Shown here one piece after another: positions 1 to 41,225 of a stretch of 64,000 bases of DNA. This DNA comes from Bacteroidales bacterium (lineage in GTDB: Bacteria; Bacteroidota; Bacteroidia; Bacteroidales; WCHB1-69): contig JAFVNW010000060.1 in NCBI GenBank assembly GCA_017506175.1, positions 11,490 through 75,489 of the forward strand. The letters run 5' to 3'. The notes under the pieces are model-generated. The model searched no databases. It was not told the DNA's origin and worked only from the letters and a program-made list of their open reading frames with translations. The translations under genes were made by a program, and so were the position numbers. Numbering within the stretch: the stretch's first letter is position 1; each line of letters opens with the position of its first letter.

Positions 1-2
1 AA

Positions 3-701
3 TATTCTCATGCCAATCGCATTAATCGTATGGGAGAAGAAACTTATGATGTGGTAAGGAACAATATTCAGTTGTGCATTGATGAGAAAATGCCATACAG
101 TCTTTCCATAACCATTTCGGAGAACACTTTGCGAAACAAAGATGCGGTATTGCAAGAAATACTCTCATTGGAACCTTTGACCATTGCTTTCAATATGCTT
201 ATTCCCAATAAGCACCTGACCCCATCTGACACTTATTATGAAAAAGCCACAGACTTTATGATCGATTGTTTTAAGCAATTAAGAAATAAAGGGTTATATG
301 AAGATAGGATGATGCGAAAGGTGCAGGCTTTTATTGACAATAAACTATATCTCTACGATTGTTGCGCTTCGGGCGGAAATCAGCTTGTTATTGCACCTGA
401 TGGCGGTATTGGCATTTGTCATGGTTATTTGAATGACCGAAAGTATTTCTCATCAAATGTAAGGGATGAATATTTTGATTTCCGCAAGAGTTCCGATTTC
501 ACATATTGGAAAAAGCGATCACCAATTTTTATGTCTGAATGTCAGGATTGCGAGTGTTTGGGGATATGCGGTGGCGGATGCCCTTATGCGGCAGATTACA
601 TGCATGGTTCTATCTATGCACTGGATGATAGATTTTGCATCCATGCAAAAAGAATTGTTAGGTGGTTGATTGAAGATTTGTACATGAATACAAAAAAATA
701 A
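3..701 (+). CDS. radical SAM/SPASM-domain enzyme, C-terminal portion (5' end lies upstream of the window)
   Basis: The frame is open back to the window edge (YSHANRINR precedes the Met at 30). It has auxiliary-cluster cysteines typical of SPASM domains: DCCASGGNQLVIAPDGGIGICHG ... CQDCECLGICGGGCPY. Confidence 0.8.
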   Translation, partial: YSHANRINRMGEETYDVVRNNIQLCIDEKMPYSLSITISENTLRNKDAVLQEILSLEPLTIAFNMLIPNKHLTPSDTYYEKATDFMIDCFKQLRNKGLYEDRMMRKVQAFIDNKLYLYDCCASGGNQLVIAPDGGIGICHGYLNDRKYFSSNVRDEYFDFRKSSDFTYWKKRSPIFMSECQDCECLGICGGGCPYAADYMHGSIYALDDRFCIHAKRIVRWLIEDLYMNTKK

Positions 702-713
702 GAGACCAATGAT

Positions 714-1817
714 ATGAGTAGTGCCGTCAAAACTTGTATAAATGATTTTATAAATAGGATAACCCCTATTATAAAGGTTGTAGATTACTGTAATTTCACT
801 TGTGATTTTTGCCGTTATCCCGATTACCCATATAAATCGGCTATGCCATTTTCAACTTATAAAACCATTGTGGAGAAAGCATGTGATTATAATATTTCAA
901 ATGGTTGTTATTGTCAAAGTGTTATTTTTCATGGTGGTGAACCTTTATTGTGGGGGTATGACAACTTTGTATCTGCAATCGGATTTCAGAAAGTTTTAAC
1001 AGAACAATATCCCGGAATAGAATTCAGAAACAGTATACAAACCAATGGATCATTATTAGACGACCGATGGATTGATTTTTTTTCAGAGAACAACTTTGAT
1101 GTTGGAATTTCAATAGATGGACCTGAAGAAATAAATTTTCATAAGAATCCTTTAGGTAGTGGAACTGTATTAGAAAAAATACATAAATTGTCACAAAAGA
1201 ATTGTAAATTCGGGATACTATCAGTAATTACTAACGCTCATGCAGGTTATGCTGATAAATACTACGATTTTTTAGTTGAGCAAAACATTCATTCTGTCGG
1301 TTTTTGCTATTGTGTGTACGATGAAGATAAACACGTTACGGTTGAAAACAATATTCTTACGGATTTTTTGAAACGTTTTTTTGTTCGATATTTTGAAGGA
1401 AAATATCAATTGAGTGTAAGGGAATTCGACAACATTCTTAAATTGTGTCTTGGGCATCACACAGGTGCATGTACATTTTCAAAAAGGCAAAGGTGCGGTA
1501 ATTTTTTTTCGATTAGGCCTAATGGCGATGTGTTCTTTTGTGACCCTTATGCATTGGAAGTACCACCACTTGGTAATATTCTAAATGAAACTTTTTCGGA
1601 TATTAAATCAAAGCCTGAATTGTTAAAAATCATTATTTTGGCGAGGGAGAGTATTTTATTAAAATGTGATAGTTGTGAGATTAAAAACGTTTGCGGTGGT
1701 GGGTGTTATAGGCACACTTGGGAGAATGGGGAAAACGCTTTTTGCGATACATTTAAAGTCTTGTACCCTTTTATTAATGCATATATTAATTCATTCAACA
1801 AAATGAGGAAGTCATAA
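714..1817 (+). CDS. radical SAM/SPASM-domain peptide-modifying enzyme (367 aa)
   Basis: CxxxCxxC SAM-cluster motif (DYCNFTCDFCRY), plus GGEPLL and QTNGSLL motifs. C-terminal SPASM pattern CGNFFSIRPNGDVFFCD ... CDSCEIKNVCGGGCYRH. It starts 12 nt after the preceding rSAM gene. Confidence 0.88.
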   Translation: MSSAVKTCINDFINRITPIIKVVDYCNFTCDFCRYPDYPYKSAMPFSTYKTIVEKACDYNISNGCYCQSVIFHGGEPLLWGYDNFVSAIGFQKVLTEQYPGIEFRNSIQTNGSLLDDRWIDFFSENNFDVGISIDGPEEINFHKNPLGSGTVLEKIHKLSQKNCKFGILSVITNAHAGYADKYYDFLVEQNIHSVGFCYCVYDEDKHVTVENNILTDFLKRFFVRYFEGKYQLSVREFDNILKLCLGHHTGACTFSKRQRCGNFFSIRPNGDVFFCDPYALEVPPLGNILNETFSDIKSKPELLKIIILARESILLKCDSCEIKNVCGGGCYRHTWENGENAFCDTFKVLYPFINAYINSFNKMRKS

Positions 1818-1885
1818 TTGTAGTGTGACTTTTGTTTTTCTTAGAACCGATGGGCTCAATGGGATATAACGGAGCGAAAAGTATT

Positions 1886-2032
1886 ATGAGTAATGGAGAA
1901 AGAATTTTGGAGGGCATGAATGATTTCCGTAATTCACCAAAAATCGAGTGTAAAGATTATCCTGTTTGGGATGGTGACAGATGGGATGACTCTTGGTCGC
2001 ATGATAGCTGGCAGGATTCACACGGAAACTAA
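1886..2032 (+). CDS. Trp/Asp-rich small peptide, candidate RiPP precursor A (48 aa from ATG 1886; the ORF track extends it to TTG 1832)
   Basis: MSNGERILEGMNDFRNSPKIECKDYPVWDGDRWDDSWSHDSWQDSHGN. It shares an N-terminal NGERxLE motif and a VWxxDxW core with the ORF at 2219. It is on the same strand, directly after two rSAM/SPASM genes. Confidence 0.6.
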   Translation: MSNGERILEGMNDFRNSPKIECKDYPVWDGDRWDDSWSHDSWQDSHGN

Positions 2033-2040
2033 TTGACAAA

Positions 2041-2079
2041 AACAGAATATTTTTCTATTGAAGAATATTCTGTTTTTCC
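2041..2079 (+). terminator. rho-independent terminator-like hairpin after peptide A
   Basis: Perfect 11-bp stem AACAGAATATT (2041-2051) / AATATTCTGTT (2064-2074) with a 12-nt loop, running into TTTTT. Confidence 0.7.
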
Positions 2080-2218
2080 TTAGTACATGACAAAATTTGT
2101 TAAAGTCTGATAGCCAGCGGATTAGCTATAGACAAGAACGCAGGTATCGGTATTTCATAGTCGTTTCTGTCTCTGAGAAGGAACTCGGTGACGATGTCCA
2201 GACCGTAGCGGTAGTATT

Positions 2219-2437
2219 ATGAGTAAAACGAATGGCGAAAGGCAACTTGAATATTTACAAAATGAGGCTGACGTTTATGACGACGTTTGGTCGCGTGACG
2301 GTTGGGCTGAATGGGGTGATGAGATTAAAAATGAAGTTCTTGGAACATGGAATGATGATATAGGTGATTGGCCAATGAATTCATGGTCAAAAGGAAAATA
2401 CGATGATATTTATGATGTAAAAGGTGAAGGAGATTAA
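2219..2437 (+). CDS. Trp/Asp-rich small peptide, candidate RiPP precursor B (72 aa)
   Basis: MSKTNGERQLEYLQNEADVYDDVWSRDGWAEWGDE...: 6 Trp, 12 Asp, no Cys. The leader and first core motif are paralogous to peptide A, with synonymous nucleotide differences (GGA/GGC, AGA/AGG). Confidence 0.6.
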   Translation: MSKTNGERQLEYLQNEADVYDDVWSRDGWAEWGDEIKNEVLGTWNDDIGDWPMNSWSKGKYDDIYDVKGEGD

Positions 2438-2560: not shown

Positions 2561-3043
2561 ATGCCTAAAGCCCTATTAATAGTAGATGTTCAGAATGGCT
2601 TCGTCAATGAGAAGACAAAGCACATCCCGAGGCTTGTTGAGAAACTGCAATACAACTATGACCTTGTCATCGCGACAAGGTTCATCAATTTGCCAGATTC
2701 CCCATTTAGGAGACTAATCAAGTGGAATCGTCTTTCACCAGGCACAAATGAAATAGATCTTGCTTTCAAGCCTAAAGAGGGGATTGTGGTTGTTGACAAG
2801 TACATCTATTCCTGTATTGATGAAACGTTTCTGCGTTTGTTGGAAGACAAGGGGATAGAAGCGGTGGATATTTGCGGAATAGACACTGATATATGTGTCA
2901 CCAAATGCGCTGTGGATCTTTTCGAACGGAATATGACTCCATACGTTTTGAGGGACTATTGCGCCACCCATGCGGATGCTGATATCCAAGAGGCGGCGTT
3001 GGTGATATTGGCGAGATATATCGGCAAATCCCAAATCATATGA
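2561..3043 (+). CDS. isochorismatase-family cysteine hydrolase (nicotinamidase-like)
   Basis: LLIVDVQNGF N-terminal Asp motif and GIDTDICVTKCAVD catalytic Cys motif; about 160 aa, the typical family size. Confidence 0.8.
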   Translation: MPKALLIVDVQNGFVNEKTKHIPRLVEKLQYNYDLVIATRFINLPDSPFRRLIKWNRLSPGTNEIDLAFKPKEGIVVVDKYIYSCIDETFLRLLEDKGIEAVDICGIDTDICVTKCAVDLFERNMTPYVLRDYCATHADADIQEAALVILARYIGKSQII

Positions 3044-27144: not shown

Positions 27145-28047
27145 TTAGTCGTCGTATTCGTAGAAGTAGGAGGTCGTGTTGTTGATTGTGTTGGTCATGT
27201 TGCCGATAACTTGGGTGGTGACTTTTTTCTCGGTCATTTGAGTCGGGTATTTGTGGTCAACGCTCGGGTAGGTGTAGGTGTAGTCCCAAGTGGTGTTATT
27301 CCATGCGGAGTTGGTTTCGTGAATTGTGGCGGGCGCATTCTTGGATTGGTTGTAGGCATTGTTGTCGTTGCTATGGCTAAAGAGTTTGTAGAATGGGTTC
27401 ATGTAGTCGCTGTAGGTGTAAGTGAAGACTTGTTCCACATTGGCGGTGTTGTTGCGCACAATGGCCTTTTGAACGTTTACACCATCGTACTCGAAGGAAA
27501 CGACCATTTCGGTTTTGCCTTTGAAACCGCGTTGCGCTTCGGCTTGCATGATTTTGCCGAAATCGCAGGCGAACTCGGGAGCGATGAAACGCATGGCGGA
27601 TTCGGCCATACGGCTCTTCATGAAATCGTCATCGTTGAGGGTGATGTCTATTTTGCTGATGAGTTTGCCGTCGTGTGAGAATTTCATGGTGCCGACTTCG
27701 TCAGAGCCTTCGGTGACTTTAATATTGTCGAAATATCTTCCGTCGTAATTGTAAGTCATCGTGTAGGTGCCGTCGGAGATGCTCTTCACCTGTTTCTTGT
27801 CGTAGGTGAAGGTTTCGGTGTAGCTGTTGTCTCCGATGGGGTCGGTATCGGCATGTTTGATGCTCATCAGCAGGTTGTCTTCCCAATCCCAAGTTTCAGT
27901 CAGGACTTTGTCCTGTCCTTCATATTGGACATAGATTTTCTCGATTTTTTCTTTCGGTTTGTAAACGCCATCCTTGTTGCAGGAAGTGAATCCGAAAACA
28001 ACTGCGCAGACTAAAGCTGCCATTGCGATTTTTTTAATGCTTTTCAT
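27145..28047 (-). CDS. hypothetical lipoprotein
   Basis: Signal peptide with lipobox (VVFGFTSCNKDG); no recognised domain. Confidence 0.6.
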   Translation of the reverse strand: MKSIKKIAMAALVCAVVFGFTSCNKDGVYKPKEKIEKIYVQYEGQDKVLTETWDWEDNLLMSIKHADTDPIGDNSYTETFTYDKKQVKSISDGTYTMTYNYDGRYFDNIKVTEGSDEVGTMKFSHDGKLISKIDITLNDDDFMKSRMAESAMRFIAPEFACDFGKIMQAEAQRGFKGKTEMVVSFEYDGVNVQKAIVRNNTANVEQVFTYTYSDYMNPFYKLFSHSNDNNAYNQSKNAPATIHETNSAWNNTTWDYTYTYPSVDHKYPTQMTEKKVTTQVIGNMTNTINNTTSYFYEYDD

Positions 28048-28239
28048 ATTCGTTGGTTTATAGATGTTTTTTCCGCCTACTCTTTGCGCTTTTCGGCTTC
28101 CGCGAAATTATTGTTGATTTAAATTGTTGGTTTTCAATTGATTGTAATGTTTGGTTTTTCTTAAAAAACAAGTCGCAAATATACAAGATTTTCAAGGTAA
28201 AAAAACAAAAAAAATTTTTTTGATTTTTTATAAATTATG

Positions 28240-38627: not shown

Positions 38628-38782
38628 CCCGCGCCGACCCGCATCGGAGGTCGCATAAGTAGGTCCCTTTGAGGTGGCGGTTGTGCCATCTACGTCCCTG
38701 CTTTACCTGCCGCTTTCCAGTCGTGTTGATATTGTGTTAGTAAATAATTGGCTTTTCACAAAATTATTCGCCTTGAAATATA

Positions 38783-38790
38783 TATTTTTG
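38783..38790 (+). promoter_or_regulatory. Bacteroidota -7 promoter box (TATTTTTG) ahead of the riboswitch
   Basis: TAnnTTTG match immediately upstream of the riboswitch start. Confidence 0.5.
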
Positions 38791-38794
38791 CGGC

Positions 38795-38950
38795 GCTTTC
38801 GGTTTCGCAAGAATCAAAAGGGAACGCTGTGAAAATCAGTGGCTATACCCGTAGCTGTTAGTTCCATGATGCGCCTTTCCAATGTGTCACTGCCCTTTCA
38901 GGGCGGGAAGACGGAAAGTGCGGGGACAAGCCAGAAGACCTGCCAAAGCA
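38795..38950 (+). promoter_or_regulatory. cobalamin (B12) riboswitch
   Basis: AAAAGGGAACGCTGTGAAAATCAGTGGCTATACCCGTAGCTGT core, B12 box GTCACTGCCC...GGGCGGGAAGAC and 3' AAGCCAGAAGACCTGCC. These align element by element with the E. coli btuB leader as I recall it. Confidence 0.9.
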
Positions 38951-39053
38951 CATATTTTCGTTGCTTTCGGGAATAAGGGCGGACGAAGCGACTTAGGTCG
39001 TGTAAATGCTCCCCCAAGCGCCTTTGATGACAAACCATAACCAATAACCATTA

Positions 39054-41225
39054 ATGGACGAACTGTATATTCTTAAAAGAAATGGCAAACGAGAACTTTT
39101 CTCAGCCGAAAAAATCAAAAATGCCATATCGAGGGCATTCCTTTCCGTAAACAGTTTCGCAACACAGGACGTGCTTGTCAATGTGATGGGGCGCTTGAAA
39201 ATCCACAACGGCATCACCGTGGAGGAAATCCAGAACCAGGTTGAGACCGCCCTCATGGCGGAGCACTACTATGAAGTGGCCAAGGCATACATCCTTTATC
39301 GCCAACACCATTACGAGGATCGCGAGGTGAAGGACAAGCTCGATTTCTTCATCAACTATTGCAACGCATCCAACGCGGCCACCGGCAGCAAGTACGACGC
39401 CAATGCCAATGTGGAGCGCAAGAATATCGCCACCCTCATCGGAGAACTTCCCAAGTCGAGTTTCATCCGCCTCAACAGACGTATGCTCTGCGACAAAATC
39501 AAGGACATGTACGGCAAGGAGTTGGCAGACAGATATATGTACCTGCTCAATCATCATTTTATTTATAAGAATGACGAGACCAGCATCGCCAATTACTGCG
39601 CCAGCATCACGATGTATCCGTGGCTGCTCGAAGGAACGAAAAGTATCGGCGGCAACGCCTCTGCTCCCACCAACCTAAAGTCCTACTGCGGGGGCTTTAT
39701 CAATATGGTGTTTATGGTTTCCAGTATGCTCAGCGGTGCCTGCGCCACCCCCGAGTTTTTGATGTACATGGACTATTTCGCCCGCAAAGAGTACGGCAAC
39801 GACTATTATCTCTCCAGCGACAAAGTGGTTGATCTCTCTACCCGCCAACGCACCATCGACAAGGTCATCACCGATTGCTTCGAGCAGGTCGTCTATTCCA
39901 TCAACCAGCCCACCGGTGCCCGCAACTATCAGTCCGTCTTTTGGAACATTTCGTATTACGACCGTTATTATTTCGAGAGTCTTTTCGGGGAATTCCGCTT
40001 CCCTGACGGCACGAGGCCATCCTGGGATTCGTTAAGCTGGCTGCAAAAACGCTTTATGCGTTGGTTTAATGCCGAACGCACCCGCGCCGTGCTCACTTTC
40101 CCTGTCGAGACCATGGCCCTGCTTTCCAAGGATGGCGATATCATCGACACCGAGTATGCCGACTTCACTGCTGAGATGTATGCTGCCGGTCACTCTTTCT
40201 TTACCTACGTGAGCGACAACGCCGACTCGCTGAGCAGTTGCTGCCGCTTGCGCAACGAGATTCAGGACAACGGCTTCAGCTACACCCTCGGTGCCGGCGG
40301 CGTTTCCACCGGTTCGAAGAGCGTGCTCACCATCAACCTCAACCGCTGCATCCAGTATGAGCACCGCAACAACATACCGAAACTGCAATTCGTGGAAGAG
40401 GTCATCGACCTGATGCACAAAGTGCAGATCGCCTACAACGAGAACCTCAAATACTTGCAGTCGAAGGGAATGCTCCCCCTCTTCGATGCCGGCTACATCG
40501 CCATTGCACGGCAGTATCTCACCATCGGCGTGAACGGCATGGTGGAGGCCGCCGAGTATTTGGGTATCTCCATCGACGACAACCTCCAATACCAGCATTT
40601 CGTTGAGGATGTGTTGGGATTGGTGGAACGCTACAACCATAAGTATCGTACCAAGGACCTGATGTTCAATTGCGAGATGATTCCAGCGGAGAACGTGGGC
40701 GTGAAGCATGCCAAGTGGGATCGCGAGGACGGCTACGAAGTGCCCCGCGATTGCTACAACAGCTATTTCTTCAAGGTGGAGGACGATTCCATTAACCTGC
40801 TCGACAAGTTCCGTCTGCATGGCAGTCGCTACATCTCACACCTTACTGGCGGCTCCGCTCTCCATGCCAATTTGGAAGAGCACCTCTCGCAGGCGCAGTA
40901 TCGCCAGCTGTTGCGCGTGGCTGCCCAGGAAGGGTGCAACTATTTCACCTTCAACATCCCCAATACGCTTTGCAACGACTGCGGGCACATCGACAAACGC
41001 TATCTACACGAGTGCCCCGTATGCCACAGCAAAGACATCGACTATCTTACCCGCGTCATTGGTTATATGAAGCGCGTCAGCAGCTTCTCGTTGGCCCGCC
41101 AGCAGGAGGAACGCCGTCGTTTCTATGGCCGCATGGAGGATGAAAAAGAAACACTTCCCAACCTTTCCGACGCGCGCCGCGAGCTTTTACAGCAGCATCA
41201 TTACCATGAATCTGAAGTTTTATAA
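39054..41225 (+). CDS. nrdD: anaerobic ribonucleoside-triphosphate reductase (class III)
   Basis: N-terminal ATP-cone (ILKRNGKRELFSAEKIKNAISRA), Cys-rich Zn site CNDCGH...CPVCH and glycyl-radical motif TRVIGYMKR. Confidence 0.93.
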   Translation: MDELYILKRNGKRELFSAEKIKNAISRAFLSVNSFATQDVLVNVMGRLKIHNGITVEEIQNQVETALMAEHYYEVAKAYILYRQHHYEDREVKDKLDFFINYCNASNAATGSKYDANANVERKNIATLIGELPKSSFIRLNRRMLCDKIKDMYGKELADRYMYLLNHHFIYKNDETSIANYCASITMYPWLLEGTKSIGGNASAPTNLKSYCGGFINMVFMVSSMLSGACATPEFLMYMDYFARKEYGNDYYLSSDKVVDLSTRQRTIDKVITDCFEQVVYSINQPTGARNYQSVFWNISYYDRYYFESLFGEFRFPDGTRPSWDSLSWLQKRFMRWFNAERTRAVLTFPVETMALLSKDGDIIDTEYADFTAEMYAAGHSFFTYVSDNADSLSSCCRLRNEIQDNGFSYTLGAGGVSTGSKSVLTINLNRCIQYEHRNNIPKLQFVEEVIDLMHKVQIAYNENLKYLQSKGMLPLFDAGYIAIARQYLTIGVNGMVEAAEYLGISIDDNLQYQHFVEDVLGLVERYNHKYRTKDLMFNCEMIPAENVGVKHAKWDREDGYEVPRDCYNSYFFKVEDDSINLLDKFRLHGSRYISHLTGGSALHANLEEHLSQAQYRQLLRVAAQEGCNYFTFNIPNTLCNDCGHIDKRYLHECPVCHSKDIDYLTRVIGYMKRVSSFSLARQQEERRRFYGRMEDEKETLPNLSDARRELLQQHHYHESEVL

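Follow-up and report, generated by a model that had tools for sequence, protein, structure and literature searches.

What do two neighbouring radical S-adenosylmethionine (rSAM) enzymes with SPASM domains do with the small, tryptophan- and aspartate-rich peptides encoded behind them, and do they work as one system? The question is raised by the first 2,437 positions of a 64,000-nucleotide stretch of a Bacteroidales genome (contig JAFVNW010000060.1, positions 11,490 to 75,489; ‘the window’ below means this whole stretch). Here the genes of two such enzymes, which we call enzyme 1 and enzyme 2, lie on the same strand with a gap of 12 nucleotides (nt) and are followed by two short open reading frames (ORFs) for peptides A and B. 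An earlier note on this DNA had taken all four genes for one locus of a RiPP, a peptide made by the ribosome and modified after translation, with two tandem enzymes and with both peptides as substrates. All of its details that we checked, namely the coordinates and features of both enzymes and both small ORFs, are correct, and its RiPP claim is supported for enzyme 2 and peptide A, which recur as a conserved pair across phyla. The claim of a single tandem system does not hold: judged by its genes, the locus holds two separate predicted peptide-modification systems, not one.

The evidence for the enzyme 2/peptide A pair comes from its relatives. We treated as one family all relatives of enzyme 2 with at least 35% identity. 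A genome scan returned 11 loci with 36-73% identity to enzyme 2, followed by a steep fall to 30% or less; their hosts are Rikenella, Paludibacteraceae, a Bacteroidales metagenome-assembled genome (MAG; two copies), two Butyrivibrio, Anaeroplasmataceae, Clostridiales, Blautia acetigignens, Lachnospiraceae and Desulfitobacteriaceae. A metagenome scan added 40 more loci (35-99% identity), many of them from the human gut. A Trp/Asp-rich small ORF adjoins the enzyme gene, upstream or downstream, in all 11 genome loci and in 30 of the 40 metagenome loci (about 41 of 51); the ten metagenome loci without one comprise five with Cys/Asp-rich peptides, three that are truncated and two with neither. By an automatic criterion, an adjacent same-strand ORF of at most 130 amino acids (aa) carrying at least two W-x-[D/N] motifs was found in 25 of 34 family loci; among the loci of remoter relatives it was found in 1 of 66, and the background for two or more such motifs among the other small ORFs of the fetched loci was 14 in 8733 (0.16%). 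Enzyme and peptide are thus adjacent far more often than by chance. Moreover, the peptide subtypes follow the identity classes of the enzymes: the ECKDYPVW type goes with enzymes of 67-99% identity, the WSGDWSHDW type with 50-51%, the AYHDSGWNxSWPDGW type with 38-41% and the WNDD repeat type with 38-39%, which indicates co-evolution. Taken together, these comparisons support enzyme 2 and peptide A as a pair that is conserved and co-evolves across phyla, as would be expected of a RiPP precursor and its maturase.

Peptide A is a real gene under strong purifying selection. Compared with three orthologues, its non-synonymous divergence (dN) is about 0.15, its synonymous divergence (dS) is saturated and dN/dS is at most 0.16. 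In loci of Rikenella, Paludibacteraceae and metagenomes, the enzyme is followed by orthologues with 71-77% identity, and remoter family members occur in Firmicutes. The peptide consists of a leader, MSNGERILEGMNDFRNSPKIEC, and a core, KDYPVWDGDRWDDSWSHDSWQDSHGN; its final 22 residues, VWDGDRWDDSWSHDSWQDSHGN, contain the 4 Trp and 6 Asp counted earlier. Comparison of the loci places the conserved start at the ATG at position 1886. Longer starts (1832, 1850 and 1859; MGYNG..., 57-66 aa) were rejected because they overlap with an element whose nucleotides are conserved: selection has kept the ATGGGATATAAC stretch as nucleotide sequence, an in-frame stop comes after it in locus L010, and in locus L126 it stands out of frame.

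The architecture of the precursors deserves closer attention. All 29 precursors carry Asn-Gly inside their first 11 residues, and in an alignment of 24 sequences N3, G4 and D40 are invariant and W37 and W42 nearly so. Their common core can be written as W-x(1,2)-D-x-W-x-[D/N]-x-[H/Y]. Neighbouring Trp residues are mostly spaced by 4 (45 cases) or 5 (21 cases) positions, never by 2, and 86 of the 115 Trp have D, N or H at position +2. D/N follows the last core Trp at +2 in 27 of the 29 precursors; D precedes the first core Trp at -2 in just 2 of the 29. This asymmetry favours W-x-[D/N] as the unit. A profile built from the 24 peptides matches 67 precursor clusters, all of them unnamed or ‘hypothetical protein’ and none with a Pfam domain.

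Around this pair, the 24 loci compared share no further conserved gene, be it for a peptidase, an exporter or a RiPP recognition element (RRE) protein, and many family loci consist of the enzyme and the peptide alone. Second rSAM genes beside enzyme-2 homologues are frequent, yet they belong to differing subfamilies or are absent. It is well supported by these gene neighbourhoods that 714..2032 represents a self-contained two-gene RiPP cassette, independent of enzyme 1 (Table 1).

Table 1 Features of the two predicted peptide-modification systems at the start of the window
Feature	Position	Strand	Remark
Enzyme 1, C-terminal 232 aa of a 447-aa FibroRumin-like rSAM/SPASM maturase	3..701	+	open at window edge
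Enzyme 2, 367-aa anSME-like rSAM/SPASM enzyme, predicted maturase of peptide A	714..1817	+	
41-nt conserved element, candidate 5'-UTR hairpin or operator	1840..1880	+	
Precursor peptide A, 48 aa	1886..2032	+	
AT-rich 18-bp terminator-like hairpin with U tract	2037..2078	+	directly 3' of peptide A stop
Peptide B, 72 aa, lineage-specific Trp/Asp-rich ORF	2219..2437	+	

Enzyme 1 belongs to a different system. Its gene is indeed cut by the window edge, where the ORF is open and encodes the SPASM end of the protein (TIGR04085, 52 bits). Exact-protein look-up of enzyme 2 led to scaffold L001 (82 kb; the window position is the L001 position minus 9287), which extends the contig upstream and contains enzyme 1 at its full length of 447 aa (L001 8645-9988). 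By a wide margin, its top NCBIfam match is TIGR04136 (FibroRumin rSAM peptide maturase), end to end, with 345 bits against a cut-off of 400. A Cys-rich small ORF, MISPKVTDYKKIQGKISEFVKVHMSSTCSCSCNCTCGCNCNAPILQNRFVNPARRII, lies 15 nt upstream of enzyme 1 (L001 8457-8630, outside the window), and the peptide (...HMSSTCSCSCNCTCGCNCNAPIL...) matches TIGR04135, FibroRuminTarg (E = 5e-5, 23 bits, cut-off 45). This match suggests that enzyme 1 has its own substrate outside the window, and since both scores fall under the curated cut-offs (400 and 45), we regard the system as a divergent relative and call it ‘FibroRumin-like’. The likeness, which rests on the end-to-end enzyme match and on the Cys-rich core and TIGR04135 match of the upstream peptide, concerns 3..701 only and not the Trp/Asp peptides; a literature search on FibroRumin turned up no paper. 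The tandem-enzyme model was dropped when the upstream extension revealed this separate Cys-rich precursor.

Further upstream, L001 encodes a 370-aa protein, a small helix-turn-helix (HTH) protein, a 158-aa protein and an 1859-aa membrane protein. The earlier suggestion that a peptidase, an exporter or an RRE protein may lie upstream was not borne out, as none of them was found in the 10 kb upstream of the window. The 1859-aa protein (L001 595-6174) crosses the membrane several times; its C-terminus is faintly PBP2/transpeptidase-like, and it matches no other family. The small HTH protein (XRE/HTH_26-like; L001 6740-7030) is shared with locus L124 (1515-1826), where its gene is situated directly upstream of the Trp/Asp precursor.

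To which family does enzyme 2 belong? No named family had been proposed for it, and profile hidden Markov models agree, with every curated NCBIfam cut-off missed. The highest score, 193.5 bits, is to the anaerobic sulfatase-maturating enzymes (anSME, TIGR03942), whose equivalog cut-off is 349.45, so that enzyme 2 falls short of this model; next comes DynA with 147 (cut-off 450). Models of cyclophane-forming enzymes gave 140 bits for GrrM/OscB (cut-off 310), 118 for YhhB (445), 109 for AmcB (425), 94 for FxsB (370) and 62 for XyeB (450), and enzyme 2 scored 69 bits on DarE (cut-off 650), 97 on PapB and 38 on TIGR04148 (cut-off 300). Ten diverse enzyme-2 homologues behaved alike, with 168-216 bits for anSME and, in the six that reported it, 149-166 bits for DynA. 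Among protein structures, the closest to enzyme 2 are anSMEcpe (PDB 4K36, 112 bits) and ChlB, a triceptide synthase (9GM3, 76 bits, E = 1.8e-20). The CNFTCDFC (Cx3Cx2C, residues 26-33) and CGGGC motifs are present as described earlier; another eight Cys, the same in all of 16 homologues, line up with those of the anSME auxiliary clusters, and the SPASM set of Cys is complete. Because the radical SAM motif begins at residue 26, enzyme 2 has no N-terminal RRE. In the protein database, it has 324 homologues at E<1e-10, and at least 120 clusters stand at 37% identity or above, nearly all of them unnamed; the Blautia acetigignens member (WP_262579748.1) is labelled merely ‘radical SAM/SPASM domain-containing protein’. 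For the genes called in loci L001-L007, the records list no Pfam sulfatase domain.

Among peptides cross-linked by rSAM/SPASM enzymes, the Trp/Asp system is best filed closest to the triceptides and dynobactin, by likeness and not by membership. With the triceptide systems (XyeB, GrrM/OscB, FxsB, YhhB, AmcB, ChlB and HtkB) it shares a small gene set and several aromatic-X-X motifs in the precursors (class definition in PMC11499958); its maturase, an RRE-less, anSME-like rSAM/SPASM enzyme of about 360 aa, resembles theirs in sub-cut-off scores of 94-140 bits on NCBIfam cyclophane models and in the match to the ChlB structure. It differs from them in that enzyme 2 lies below every cyclophane cut-off and scores higher on anSME, in cores dominated by Trp and Asp with a period of 4-5 residues and an invariant D-x-W, and in its hosts, which are anaerobic gut Bacteroidales and Firmicutes, with no protease nearby. 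As for dynobactin, DynA is the second-best NCBIfam match of most family enzymes tested (147-166 bits), but all remain far under its cut-off of 450. Dynobactin carries a C-beta carbon-carbon link from Trp to Asn on W-x-N, made by DynA, of the same kind as the one proposed here for W-x-D/N. The peptides of our family are, unlike those of dynobactin and daropeptide systems, highly acidic and repetitive and come without ABC (ATP-binding cassette) exporter genes. Daropeptides (DarE, PasB) require an aromatic-X-aromatic motif (PMC12912966), whereas the Trp residues here stand 4-5 apart, W-x-W was never seen and the DarE score is 69 against 650.

Other relatives stand further off. The best sequence match of enzyme 2 is anSME, with which it shares the fold, the three-cluster Cys pattern and the conserved Cys-Asp pair 276-277; it differs from anSME by its sub-cut-off score and by a family that makes up a separate identity class, tied genomically to Trp/Asp peptides and not to sulfatases. 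SCIFF systems are likewise minimal pairs of a peptide and a maturase in anaerobes. Ranthipeptides of the PapB kind resemble the proposed chemistry in having Asp as the radical-bearing partner; according to PMC9413430, PapB joins Cys to Asp/Glu side chains by radical chemistry, which provides a precedent for this role of Asp. Ranthipeptides and SCIFF differ from our system, where the cores have one Cys or none, enzyme 2 is without the typical N-terminal RRE and the PapB model gives 97 bits. The KxxxW motif of streptide is missing from peptides A and B and, unlike the RRE-bearing StrB-type maturase, enzyme 2 has no N-terminal extension. Neither leader contains the Gly-Gly motif of the GG-Bacteroidales system (TIGR04148/04149), on whose enzyme model the score of 38 bits compares with a cut-off of 300; both absences had been noted before.

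We consider it reasonably probable, by analogy with these systems, that the two genes make up a RiPP cassette in which enzyme 2 performs Trp-Asp/Asn side-chain cross-linking of the triceptide/dynobactin kind. The leader of peptide A would be recognised via its N-terminus, where the invariant Asn-Gly precedes a hydrophobic/acidic, helix-like stretch, and the adjacent enzyme 2, with three predicted [4Fe-4S] clusters and no RRE, would carry out the modification. Triceptide synthases use aromatic-X-X motifs, in which the C-beta of the third residue becomes bonded to the ring (PMC11499958). By analogy with them and with DynA, a 5'-deoxyadenosyl radical would take a side-chain hydrogen, most likely from C-beta, from the conserved Asp/Asn, and the resulting carbon radical would add to the indole of the Trp two residues away. 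The product would be a strongly acidic peptide with several small cyclophane rings, each lowering the mass by 2 Da. Transcription presumably stops at the hairpin 2037..2078, and enzyme 1 would serve the neighbouring Cys-rich system without being needed for the Trp/Asp peptide.

Several observations weigh against this reading. For every family enzyme tested the top profile match is anSME, though at about half of the cut-off. No protease or exporter occurs near the cassette (24 loci; 10 kb upstream), and all characterised triceptides are proteolytically matured (PMC12912966). Two family loci with adequate flanks, L107 and L114, show no candidate peptide, and a subgroup of enzymes with 43% identity (L098-L101 and L112) is flanked by Cys/Asp-rich instead of Trp/Asp-rich peptides. 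In addition, the distance from the invariant Asp to the next Trp is always that of D-x-W, whereas the preceding Trp lies 2 or 3 residues away, which leaves the direction of the cross-link ambiguous. Finally, the triplets of peptide A are WDG, WDD, WSH and WQD, and Asp occupies the third position in two of them alone.

We also observed precursors of other kinds beside enzymes of this clade and its surroundings. In three human gut loci of the 43%-identity subgroup (L098, L100 and L112), the stretch about 150-500 nt upstream of the enzyme holds a pair of small Cys/Asp-rich ORFs (...EGYEDCDCDTCFCHHCYCYD..., ...GNCDCDCQCDCYGGGCDWSNG), and a second rSAM gene, which is AhbD/GeoRSP-like, lies upstream. 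The Cys/Asp peptides of this subgroup hint at Asp, not Trp, as the constant partner in the enzyme clade. Acidic aromatic peptides (...NWEDSDWDDRESWGDSWGETV; ...YSDYWDSNYWDDEYADGDGSY) were found at L130 5088-5282 and L140 3783-3968 beside rSAM enzymes that share 26-30% identity with enzyme 2, so that precursors of this kind reach beyond the clade delimited at 35% identity. In L008 (5974-7332; Rikenella MAG NZ_CANQYJ010000010.1), the enzyme ORF runs stop-free and in frame through the intergenic element into the precursor, whose usual stop is replaced by Gln, so that the product is 18 residues longer; it represents a natural fusion of enzyme and precursor or else an error in the MAG sequence.

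The alternative that survives best, although we regard it as rather unlikely, keeps the same enzyme-substrate pair and changes the chemistry: a link to the Trp from an Asp or another residue on its N-terminal side (D-x-W, in the orientation of streptide or pyrroloquinoline quinone, PQQ), Trp-Trp or ether links, His-centred H-D-x rings, or ring-free oxidation of Ser or Asp of the formylglycine or aminomalonate type. In favour of this group of readings are an invariant Asp at a fixed spacing of -2 to a nearly invariant Trp, H-[D/E]-x(1,2)-W in 21 of 29 peptides and the frequent Ser at W-1 and W+3; enzyme 2 is nearest to anSME, an oxidiser of Ser or Cys, and over-oxidation of Ser to aminomalonate is possible for rSAM cyclophane enzymes (PMC12186529). 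The Cys/Asp peptides of the related subgroup, which point to Asp as the constant partner, also fit here. On the other hand, D/N at +2 of the last Trp (27/29) against D at -2 of the first (2/29) favours W-x-[D/N], the Blautia WNDD repeat region contains neither Ser nor His, and the Trp-Trp spacing of 4-5 is not the spacing of 2 that marks daropeptides.

It is improbable that enzymes 1 and 2 modify the same Trp/Asp peptides one after the other. The closeness of the two genes on one strand speaks for such a relay, as do the similar pairing of L124 with a FibroRumin-like enzyme and the one Cys retained in the Bacteroidales peptides of the A type (ECKDYPVW). Against it stand the cognate Cys-rich precursor directly upstream of enzyme 1, with its match to the FibroRumin target model, the Paludibacteraceae locus L009, which has a Cys-bearing peptide of the A type and no FibroRumin-like enzyme, and the partner rSAMs elsewhere, which come from unrelated subfamilies or are absent. 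Least credible of all is that enzyme 2 is an ordinary anSME or other non-RiPP rSAM enzyme and that the small ORFs are non-functional or Trp-codon-rich regulatory leader peptides: its top NCBIfam and PDB matches are anSME, one source labels the Blautia homologue an anaerobic sulfatase-maturating enzyme and the small ORF precedes the enzyme in several Firmicutes loci, but all 11 enzymes tested reach only about half of the anSME cut-off, sulfatase domains are absent from the record for L001-L007, a sharp identity gap separates the family (at least 35%) from other anSME-like proteins (at most 30%), and the peptides are conserved at non-Trp positions and in a shared leader, lie in many loci downstream of the enzyme and, in the case of peptide A, are followed by a terminator and under purifying selection.

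A further feature of the cassette is the conserved element ahead of peptide A. Its consensus, TTAGAACCGAWGRGCTC-RATGGGATATAAC-RGAGC (TTAGAACCGAWGRGCUC-RAUGGGAUAUAAC-RGAGC), comprises a covarying stem of 4 bp and a conserved loop of 14 nt, and the copy at 1840..1880 ends 5 nt before the start codon of peptide A. A covariance model, R1, found 16 strong matches (E <=6e-07) in 0.88 Mb, all on the enzyme strand, and each match that was checked ends 3-5 nt ahead of the start codon of a small ORF; in a further 0.59 Mb (Firmicutes, Bradyrhizobium and other loci) there was no match save two in the same-species locus L088. The element is absent from the Firmicutes loci of the enzyme-2 family. Copies are located at L001 8410-8451, L009 5587-5626 and 7139-7179, L047 4916-4956, L126 696-736 and 970-1010, and L140 3738-3778 and 6339-6379. 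The element stands ahead of peptide A, of the FibroRumin-like Cys-rich precursor and of orthologous precursors in other Bacteroidales loci, and likewise ahead of unrelated Cys-rich and Tyr/Asp-rich peptide ORFs beside distant rSAM enzymes (L009, L047, L126 and L140). The presence of the same element ahead of the Cys-rich precursor suggests that both systems of the window are expressed together.

Pairing in the stem holds for 96.6% of cells; 12 cells differ on both sides, 3 of the 4 pairs show such two-sided changes, and none of 500 shuffles attains the covariation score observed. On its own the stem is thermodynamically weak. No Rfam family matches the element, whether the gathering threshold is applied or E values of up to 10 are allowed. 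Its sequence is compatible with either a hairpin in the 5' untranslated region (5'-UTR) that is recognised by a protein or the ribosome, or an operator. The small HTH protein shared by L001 and L124 is a candidate regulator and could bind the 1840..1880 element. In Bacteroidales, the Trp/Asp, Cys-rich and Tyr/Asp precursors may be co-controlled by one unrecorded 5'-UTR RNA hairpin.

Peptide B is less certain as a substrate. The claim that both peptides are substrates is supported for peptide A, which recurs beside homologous enzymes and co-evolves with them, and found little support for peptide B. Its composition is as described (72 aa, 6 Trp, 12 Asp and no Cys), and its N-terminus, MSKTNGERQLEYL, is family-like; the two peptides have in common AGTATTATGAGTAA, 14 nt around the start codon, and MS..NGER.LE, which is all that peptide B shares with the family. 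A search of 5.8 billion proteins gave no homologue of peptide B apart from its own 90% cluster, and tblastn on all loci gave at most weak similarity at the level of the leader. W-x-[D/N] holds for just 2 of its 6 Trp, the covariance model scan found no R1 element ahead of it, and it lies beyond the strong terminator 2037..2078. RNA folding gives this hairpin -20.5 kcal/mol (z = -6.1), and none of 200 shuffles is as stable; the GC-based terminator scan had missed it, and scans for sigma-70-type promoters and GC-rich terminators are uninformative for AT-rich Bacteroidales sequence. Peptide B is probably a diverged local paralogue of peptide A.

Behind peptide B, an isochorismatase-family hydrolase is encoded at 2561..3043 (+; PF00857, E = 2e-22); it is probably unrelated to the cassette, as its place next to the two genes is not conserved in other taxa. 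Elsewhere in the window, a cobalamin riboswitch (RF00174, 102 bits) at 38782..38961 (+) is situated upstream of a 723-aa ORF (39054..41225), and a DUF805b RNA motif (RF02914, 39.2 bits, barely over the gathering score) at 28074..28106 (-) lies directly upstream of a 300-aa ORF (27145..28047, -).

Overall, this looks like a real but uncharacterised modified-peptide family. It bears no family name in NCBIfam, Pfam or the source annotations, and our literature searches found no publication describing it; a prior bioinformatic listing in large rSAM-RiPP surveys is possible. The clade recurs in dozens of bacteria of several phyla, among human-gut, rumen and horse- or rabbit-gut anaerobes. Tentatively, it would amount to an undescribed RiPP class in gut and rumen Bacteroidales, Clostridia and Mollicutes-like bacteria, with an undocumented type of cross-link, a possible intracellular action and, in Bacteroidales, precursors co-controlled by one hairpin. 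The cross-link could, for instance, take the form of repeated Trp-Asp carbon-carbon rings or of a D-x-W link in the reverse direction. As neither a protease nor an exporter belongs to the cassette, the peptides may act inside the cell, in a metal-binding or redox-cofactor-like role.

The rSAM/SPASM maturases without a recognition domain, such as those of darobactin, dynobactin and the triceptides, are a main source of new peptide cross-links, and the present clade, with at least 120 enzyme clusters and 67 precursor clusters, has unusually acidic, Trp-dense substrates and no curated model. As a two-gene cassette with one member in a cultured strain, Blautia acetigignens Sanger_28 (WP_262579748.1), it is directly testable. 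If the 5' element is real, it would offer a handle on the regulation of RiPP genes in Bacteroidales and a sequence tag for small precursor genes that gene callers overlook.

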